DNA of 1,323 nucleotides, taken from NCBI RefSeq assembly GCF_003334255.1, contig NZ_QOWU01000164.1; one strand, written 5' to 3'. This document shows positions 1 through 326 of the stretch, piece by piece; positions within the stretch are counted from its first letter, which is position 1; each line of letters begins with the position of its first letter. Source of the stretch: Escherichia coli. GTDB taxonomy: Bacteria > Pseudomonadota > Gammaproteobacteria > Enterobacterales > Enterobacteriaceae. The translations under genes were made by a program, and so were the position numbers. Under the pieces are notes generated by a model. It did no database searches. It saw only the letters and a list, made by a program, of their open reading frames with translations, and had not been told where the DNA came from.

Positions 1-326
1 CGGTGAACACTTACTGGCGACGCCGTGGCAGCACATATTTTGTATCAAAAGCCGGGGAGCGTTATCGCCGGGCAGTGTCGCTTATTGTTCGCCAGCAGCG
101 ACTGAAATTAAGCCTGTCCGGACGGCTGGCAATAAAAATTATTGCAGAGCCACCGGATAAGCGTCGTCGTGACCTGGACAATATTCTGAAAGCACCGCTG
201 GATGCGCTGACGCACGCGGGGTTGTTAATGGACGATGAGCAGTTTGATGAAATCAATATTGTGCGTGGTCTGCCTGTTCCTGGCGGGCGGCTGGGGATAA
301 AAATCACAGAACTGGAGTGCGCATGA
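1..326 (+). CDS. rusA: RusA-family Holliday junction resolvase (crossover junction endodeoxyribonuclease), 5'-truncated by the window edge; reading frame begins at nt 3, stop TGA at 324-326
   Basis: The translation aligns by eye to E. coli RusA: DKRRRDLDNILKAPLDALTHAGLLMDDEQF and PGGRLGIKITEL match the RusA [30 protein letters not shown] and KGGRLELTITEM blocks. The catalytic Asp triad and Lys equivalents are present (D at nt 171-173, D at 177-179, K at 189-191, D at 234-236). About 12 N-terminal codons appear to lie upstream of the window. The position directly upstream of a Q-like gene matches phage 82 and other lambdoid nin regions. Confidence 0.85.
   Translation, partial: VNTYWRRRGSTYFVSKAGERYRRAVSLIVRQQRLKLSLSGRLAIKIIAEPPDKRRRDLDNILKAPLDALTHAGLLMDDEQFDEINIVRGLPVPGGRLGIKITELECA

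Follow-up and report, generated by a model that had tools for sequence, protein, structure and literature searches.

Escherichia coli K-12 has a Holliday junction resolvase, RusA, that is encoded in DLP12, a cryptic and defective prophage of strain MG1655, and the gene is not expressed unless a promoter is brought in by an IS2 or IS10 insertion (PMC10956419; PMC4118853). In this protein, D70, D72 and D91 bind Mg2+ and are critical for catalysis, K76 is likewise critical, its proposed role being to orient the nucleophile, R69 matters for DNA binding, and N73 is important for optimal resolution (PMC1636454; PMC10956419). The K-12 enzyme prefers to cleave 5′ of CC, and other homologues differ in this respect (PMC10956419). 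In the ninR region, the rule of synteny is an orf-like gene, then a resolvase gene, then Q (PMC4118853). Rap (NinG) of phage lambda is encoded at the equivalent ninR position and acts analogously in debranching recombination intermediates (PMC4118853), but it belongs to a structurally unrelated family, and sequence similarity between Rap and RusA was not found in this analysis.

Here, we analyzed a stretch of 1,323 nucleotides of E. coli DNA (contig NZ_QOWU01000164.1; referred to in full as the window), which opens inside a rusA gene. The encoded protein belongs to the same Pfam family as K-12 RusA (b0550; PDB 1q8r, 2h8c and 2h8e), has a similar length (121 versus 120 aa) and the same predicted fold, and is identical to it at D70, D72, K76, D91, R69, N73, D80 and D90, although the overall identity is only about 38-39%. 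Both genes belong to a nin region that precedes a Q antiterminator gene. In contrast to K-12 rusA, which is preceded by ninE-ybcO and separated from quuD by ylcG, window-type rusA is preceded by a DUF968/HNH gene and overlaps Q directly through an ATGA. Phage homologues from vB_EcoS-689R5, PPompW-type and Stx2a-converting phages show 89-92% amino acid identity to the window protein (the matches of 92% and 89% are in deposited records of vB_EcoS-689R5 and PPompW phages) and the same rusA-Q order. The RusA proteins of HK97, HK140 and mEp235 are 63-65% identical to the window protein, and in phages of the HK97 type ninH comes after rusA, unlike in the window, where Q follows directly. Among deposited lambdoid-phage RusA proteins, the terminal residues vary with the module that follows. 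A literature search for an assay of this allele group found only work on the RusA enzymes of K-12, phage 82, r1t and Aquifex.

A RusA-family gene overlapping the antiterminator gene Q

In the list of open reading frames, an uninterrupted frame of 107 codons plus a stop runs from position 3 to 326 on the plus strand, with the TGA at 324-326. Its translation from nucleotide 3 is VNTYWRRRGSTYFVSKAGERYRRAVSLIVRQQRLKLSLSGRLAIKIIAEPPDKRRRDLDNILKAPLDALTHAGLLMDDEQFDEINIVRGLPVPGGRLGIKITELECA; this translation begins with VNTYWRRRG and later includes the segments DKRRRDLDNILKAPLDALTHAGLLMDDEQ and GGRLGIKITELECA. Positions 1-326 on the plus strand form the 3′ part of rusA and hold 326 of its 366 nt, about nine-tenths of this lambdoid-prophage gene. 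Nucleotide 3 opens codon 15 of 121, and nucleotides 1-2 complete codon 14. When 5,426 complete E. coli genomes were searched by megablast, four (JE86-ST05, JE86-ST02, UCPROB-001 and UCPROB-002) matched all 1323 nt at 99.7% identity. The prophage locus of JE86-ST05 (L001) differs from the window by 4 mismatches, all at 1279-1288 and outside rusA, and positions 1-326 are therefore 100% identical to L001:20001-20326.

Using phmmer against PDB chains, residues 15-117 of 120 of E. coli K-12 RusA (1q8r_A) aligned to the window ORF with E=1.8e-18, and the RusA chains of 2h8c and 2h8e were also matched; this similarity is much greater than chance would give. The Pfam RusA model (PF05866) was matched with E=4.3e-14 and 53.6 bits over positions 9-122 of the 124 in the model; with a full-length relative as the query, PHROG_34 ('RusA-like Holliday junction resolvase') was matched with E=5e-56. 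The sole NCBIfam match was to the K-12 'exception' model NF007305 (PRK09786, the K-12 RusA equivalog) at 84 bits against a cut-off of 200 bits, a sub-cut-off match that is itself uninformative on family membership; the product is a RusA-family member other than the K-12 equivalog. RefSeq names the product of the JE86-ST05 gene 'RusA family crossover junction endodeoxyribonuclease'. By its profile, catalytic residues, DNA-binding residues, fold and synteny, the window rusA product is a member of the RusA family, and the gene is already known, being annotated in RefSeq as a standard RusA-family resolvase.

In all of the 13 loci inspected, namely JE86-ST05 and 12 other relatives, rusA lies between a DUF968 gene and Q on the same strand. 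The DUF968 proteins consist of Orf-like domains fused to an HNH nuclease, and PHROGs labels this neighbour an HNH endonuclease. The Q gene occupies 323-1006 on the plus strand and encodes an antitermination protein of 227 aa (Phage_antiter_Q PF06323, 1.1e-88; PHROG_304; annotated by RefSeq in L001). The rusA stop and the Q start share the ATGA at 323-326 (ATG 323-325, TGA 324-326), and a GGAG Shine-Dalgarno sequence for Q lies at 314-317, within rusA. The ATGA overlap suggests that the resolvase and the late-gene antiterminator Q may be translationally coupled. The JE86-ST05 prophage is inserted beside yccA. It begins with integrase, exonuclease, dicB, repressor-region genes and replication O/P-like genes, continues with nin-type genes, hokD, DUF968, rusA, Q, a small ORF and a DNA methyltransferase gene, and ends with tRNA-Ile/Arg/Arg, lysis genes, terminase, portal, capsid and tail.

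Catalytic and DNA-binding residues

The window protein was aligned by MAFFT with the K-12 rusA product (L002:3372-3734, MG1655) and ten other E. coli alleles, and conservation across the family was read from an alignment of 79 sequences that came out of a search against 1.84 billion representatives (E≤0.001, 6630 matches). All residues described here are encoded on the plus strand. Asp71 (171-173), the counterpart of the Mg2+-binding catalytic residue D70 of K-12, and Lys77 (189-191), the counterpart of the catalytic K76, are invariant in 79/79 sequences. The catalytic Asp73 (177-179; K-12 D72) is conserved in 97% of the family and the catalytic Asp92 (234-236; K-12 D91) is invariant. The first-pass annotation had placed the equivalents of D70, D72, K76 and D91 at exactly these four positions, and the alignment with RusA homologues shows that the catalytic residues were correctly assigned. 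Absent from its list was Asp81 (201-203; K-12 D80), which is invariant in 79/79 sequences. Asp91 (231-233; K-12 D90), directly before Asp92, is conserved in 94%.

The basic DNA-binding loop and the start of the active-site helix, D-K-R-R-R-D-L-D-N, are encoded at 156-182 and correspond to D65 to N73 of K-12. The loop itself is K67-R68-R69-R70, accompanied by N74; Arg70 (K-12 R69) and Asn74 (K-12 N73) are 97% and 99% conserved in the 79-sequence alignment. In the same alignment, the invariant columns are P65, D71, K77, D81 and D92, and D73, N74, R70, R68, N16 and G109 are each at least 97% conserved. Within the part of the gene that the window covers, RusA has kept all the strongly conserved residues of the family.

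It had also been claimed that a C-terminal GGRL-x-I-x-ITE block is conserved, and this holds in part. The block is present as GGRLGIKITE at 282-311 on the plus strand (β-strand 110-118 of the structural model described below) and is common to K-12, where the counterpart is GGRLELTITE. It is not a family signature, since only its second G (G109, 285-287) is near-invariant (97% of the 79 sequences), and the R, L, T and E are found in 35%, 48%, 29% and 63%, respectively. In close relatives with a different Q gene, which end in ...GVKIYPIMHEEQVKK, the ITE is replaced by IYP or IYE, and therefore the ITE part is neither conserved nor diagnostic of activity.

Predicted fold, selection and activity

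An AlphaFold2 model was built from the 79-sequence alignment for a full-length relative of 121 aa that is identical to the window protein over residues 14-121; its mean pLDDT is 93.9. Compared by Foldseek with K-12 RusA (1q8r_A), the model gave TM scores of 0.94/0.96 and an rmsd of 1.0 Å over 117 columns, and the next non-RusA match had a TM score of only ~0.3. Nei-Gojobori comparisons of the window allele with ten others, 86-95% identical to it in DNA, gave dN/dS values of 0.14-0.43, and the median for the 55 pairs among the 11 alleles (L001 and L003-L012) was 0.22. Residues 55 to 102, the core of RusA, are almost invariant among the aligned alleles. A dN/dS of about 0.2 together with a near-invariant core indicates that the plus-frame product is under purifying selection.

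Taken together, the uninterrupted frame, the retained catalytic residues, the predicted RusA fold and the purifying selection on homologous alleles bear out the earlier view that the gene is likely functional. We put the probability at about 0.9 that the rusA gene at 1-326 encodes a 121-residue RusA-family Holliday junction resolvase, with activity predicted from homology. The encoded enzyme is almost certainly an active, Mg2+-dependent Holliday junction resolvase, as far as enzymatic activity and dimerization can be predicted from its relatives.

By analogy with K-12 RusA, the protein would form a homodimer and would bind four-way DNA junctions by the basic loop K67-R70. Asp71, Asp73 and Asp92 would hold Mg2+, and Lys77 would position or stabilize the attacking nucleophile; paired symmetric Mg2+-dependent nicks in two opposed strands would then resolve the junction, and recombining or replicating phage DNA would be debranched ahead of packaging. 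The gene would be transcribed in a ninR-type delayed-early rightward operon after prophage induction, and given this position in a delayed-early operon, production is expected after induction and silence in the repressed lysogen.

What an intact rusA says about its prophage

The first-pass annotation had gone further and treated the intactness of RusA as relevant to how recent or active the prophage region is. This step does not follow. The textbook active RusA sits in a defective prophage, the cryptic DLP12 of K-12, and depends on an IS insertion for its expression, so that catalytic conservation cannot be used to judge the recency or inducibility of a prophage. Quite probably, an intact enzyme is uninformative about the prophage that carries it, and rusA is a conserved, repressed cargo gene that is kept in active and defective lambdoid prophages alike. 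The closest prophage, that of JE86-ST05, is consistent with this, as its early genes for DUF4752, Ea22-like, DUF551 and YdfR proteins are frameshifted or truncated (L001 15292-17833 and 27106-27447) beside an intact rusA. The rusA allele family also points this way, since it is found in 3417 of the 5426 complete E. coli genomes (~63%), often in multiple copies and at up to nine places per genome. Against this, the same JE86-ST05 prophage retains genes for integrase, replication, Q, lysis, terminase, portal, capsid and tail that are apparently complete, and with these it could well be induced; an active phage and an intact rusA are at the least compatible. The purifying selection on rusA is most simply understood as acting on the phage lineages among which the module is exchanged and not on the state of any single prophage.

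Cleavage specificity and completeness of the gene

The protein could instead be a RusA-fold nuclease whose specificity or role has changed, with a cleavage preference other than CC or with other branched substrates as its main targets. We consider this rather unlikely, because the protein keeps the catalytic residues, the main DNA-binding residues and the fold, and its gene has the canonical genomic position. What speaks for it is the identity to K-12 RusA of only ~38%, the known variation within the family (a requirement for a single C in phage r1t RusA, cleavage 3′ of G in the Aquifex enzyme; PMC10956419), and a difference in the helical turn at residues 13-16, which reads TVNT in the window protein as against SNNR in K-12, where this segment contacts DNA. 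On the basis of these comparisons, the cleavage preference of the window RusA may differ from the CC rule of K-12.

A second alternative is that the window's own rusA is a decayed remnant, in which a 5′ frameshift, a deletion or a missing start leaves no functional RusA. In its favor, 40 nt (13 codons and 1 nt) of the gene precede the window, and with them the start; relatives have either of two N-termini at the 5′ end, which behaves as a mosaic joint, and neighboring early genes of the closest prophage are pseudogenes. In JE86-ST05, whose sequence is 100% identical over 1-326, rusA is a complete ORF of 366 nt with an ATG start directly after the TAA of the upstream gene, and all 121 codons of its product (WP_001625291.1) are intact; a GGAAAG-like Shine-Dalgarno sequence stands before this ATG (L001:19950-19963). 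Of the N-terminal LPxPPS/T-x-N segment, N16 is encoded in the window, and P10, P12, P13 and the ATG are seen in this identical relative; the near-invariant turn formed by P10, P12 and P13 falls in the 13 codons outside the window. As the window lacks these codons, the intact 5′ end of its own gene can only be inferred. In all 13 relatives that were fetched (L001 and L003-L014), rusA is annotated as an intact CDS, with an N-terminus of either MTERIEF... (121-126 aa) or MLIDL... (119-124 aa). An intact start of one type or the other in 13/13 relatives, including the identical one, together with 107 visible codons without a stop and a dN/dS of ~0.2, makes decay of the window's own copy very improbable. 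Finally, a coding signal on the opposite strand, where the mechanical ORF list includes an 81-codon frame at 62-307 on the minus strand as the one sizeable competitor, was rejected as having next to no chance of being correct, since its translation is low-complexity and Arg/Ser-rich and the plus frame is backed by family, fold and synonymous-substitution evidence.

Variable ends of rusA

The two ends of rusA vary among relatives, and the catalytic core between them is nearly invariant. In 11 loci (L001 and L003-L012), the last ~10 codons occur in three versions (ITELECA, ITEVGVHE and IYPIMHEEQVKK) and the version present goes with the kind of Q gene that lies downstream. The first ~7 codons, MTERIEF or MLIDL, change together with how the DUF968 gene upstream ends. 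In the window, this mosaic-joint behavior concerns positions 1-20 and 290-326, and it was seen in comparison with loci L003-L014. Judged from these alignments, the odds are roughly even that both ends of rusA serve as preferred mosaic joints of lambdoid phages. Exchangeable ends of this sort are still a known kind of lambdoid mosaicism.

The region downstream of Q

Several further features were observed between Q and the end of the window. A promoter-like sequence, TTGCAA-17 nt-TATATT, lies at 996-1024 and overlaps the end of Q, and a GC hairpin at 1079-1093 is followed by a T-run to 1099. A search of the whole window against Rfam returned nothing at the gathering threshold; sub-threshold matches to the Salmonella prophage sRNAs isrJ and isrK covered 1028-1099 (E ~0.7-1). 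The RNA fold of 1028-1102 had a z-score of -1.8, which is not compelling beyond the terminator hairpin. By its layout, 996-1099 looks like a PR′-type late promoter with a leader RNA of ~70 nt and a tR′-like terminator, which would be the expected target of Q. Several relatives of 96-97% identity are longer by ~225 bases in the interval from Q to the small ORF (L013 1406-1849 versus L014 1406-1624), and this extra sequence falls within the putative late-promoter/terminator region.

The window ends in the start of a 65-aa ORF of unassigned function (1223-1323; PHROG_331; WP_000917749-like). The four differences from JE86-ST05 at 1279-1288 change two residues of this ORF (A20V and E22D), and the cluster looks like a short recombination patch. 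Phage phiP27 and PPyecE-type phages match positions 1075-1323 at ~90% identity. Beyond the window, in JE86-ST05 (L001 21571-22921), a DNA methyltransferase gene and a tRNA-Ile/Arg/Arg cluster follow Q and the small ORF. Stx-converting lambdoid phages typically show such a layout of Q, small ORF, methyltransferase and tRNA genes in their Q-to-toxin region; the annotation of the JE86-ST05 prophage contains no stx gene.

Discussion

For the gene itself, these results have little significance beyond correct annotation. If both ends of rusA are indeed preferred joints, either the resolvase would tolerate exchangeable tails or its coupling to Q would require them, and the rusA/Q overlap would mark a module boundary. 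For the reading of prophages, the results call for caution, in that conserved catalytic residues support an active enzyme and not the recency or inducibility of the prophage that hosts it.
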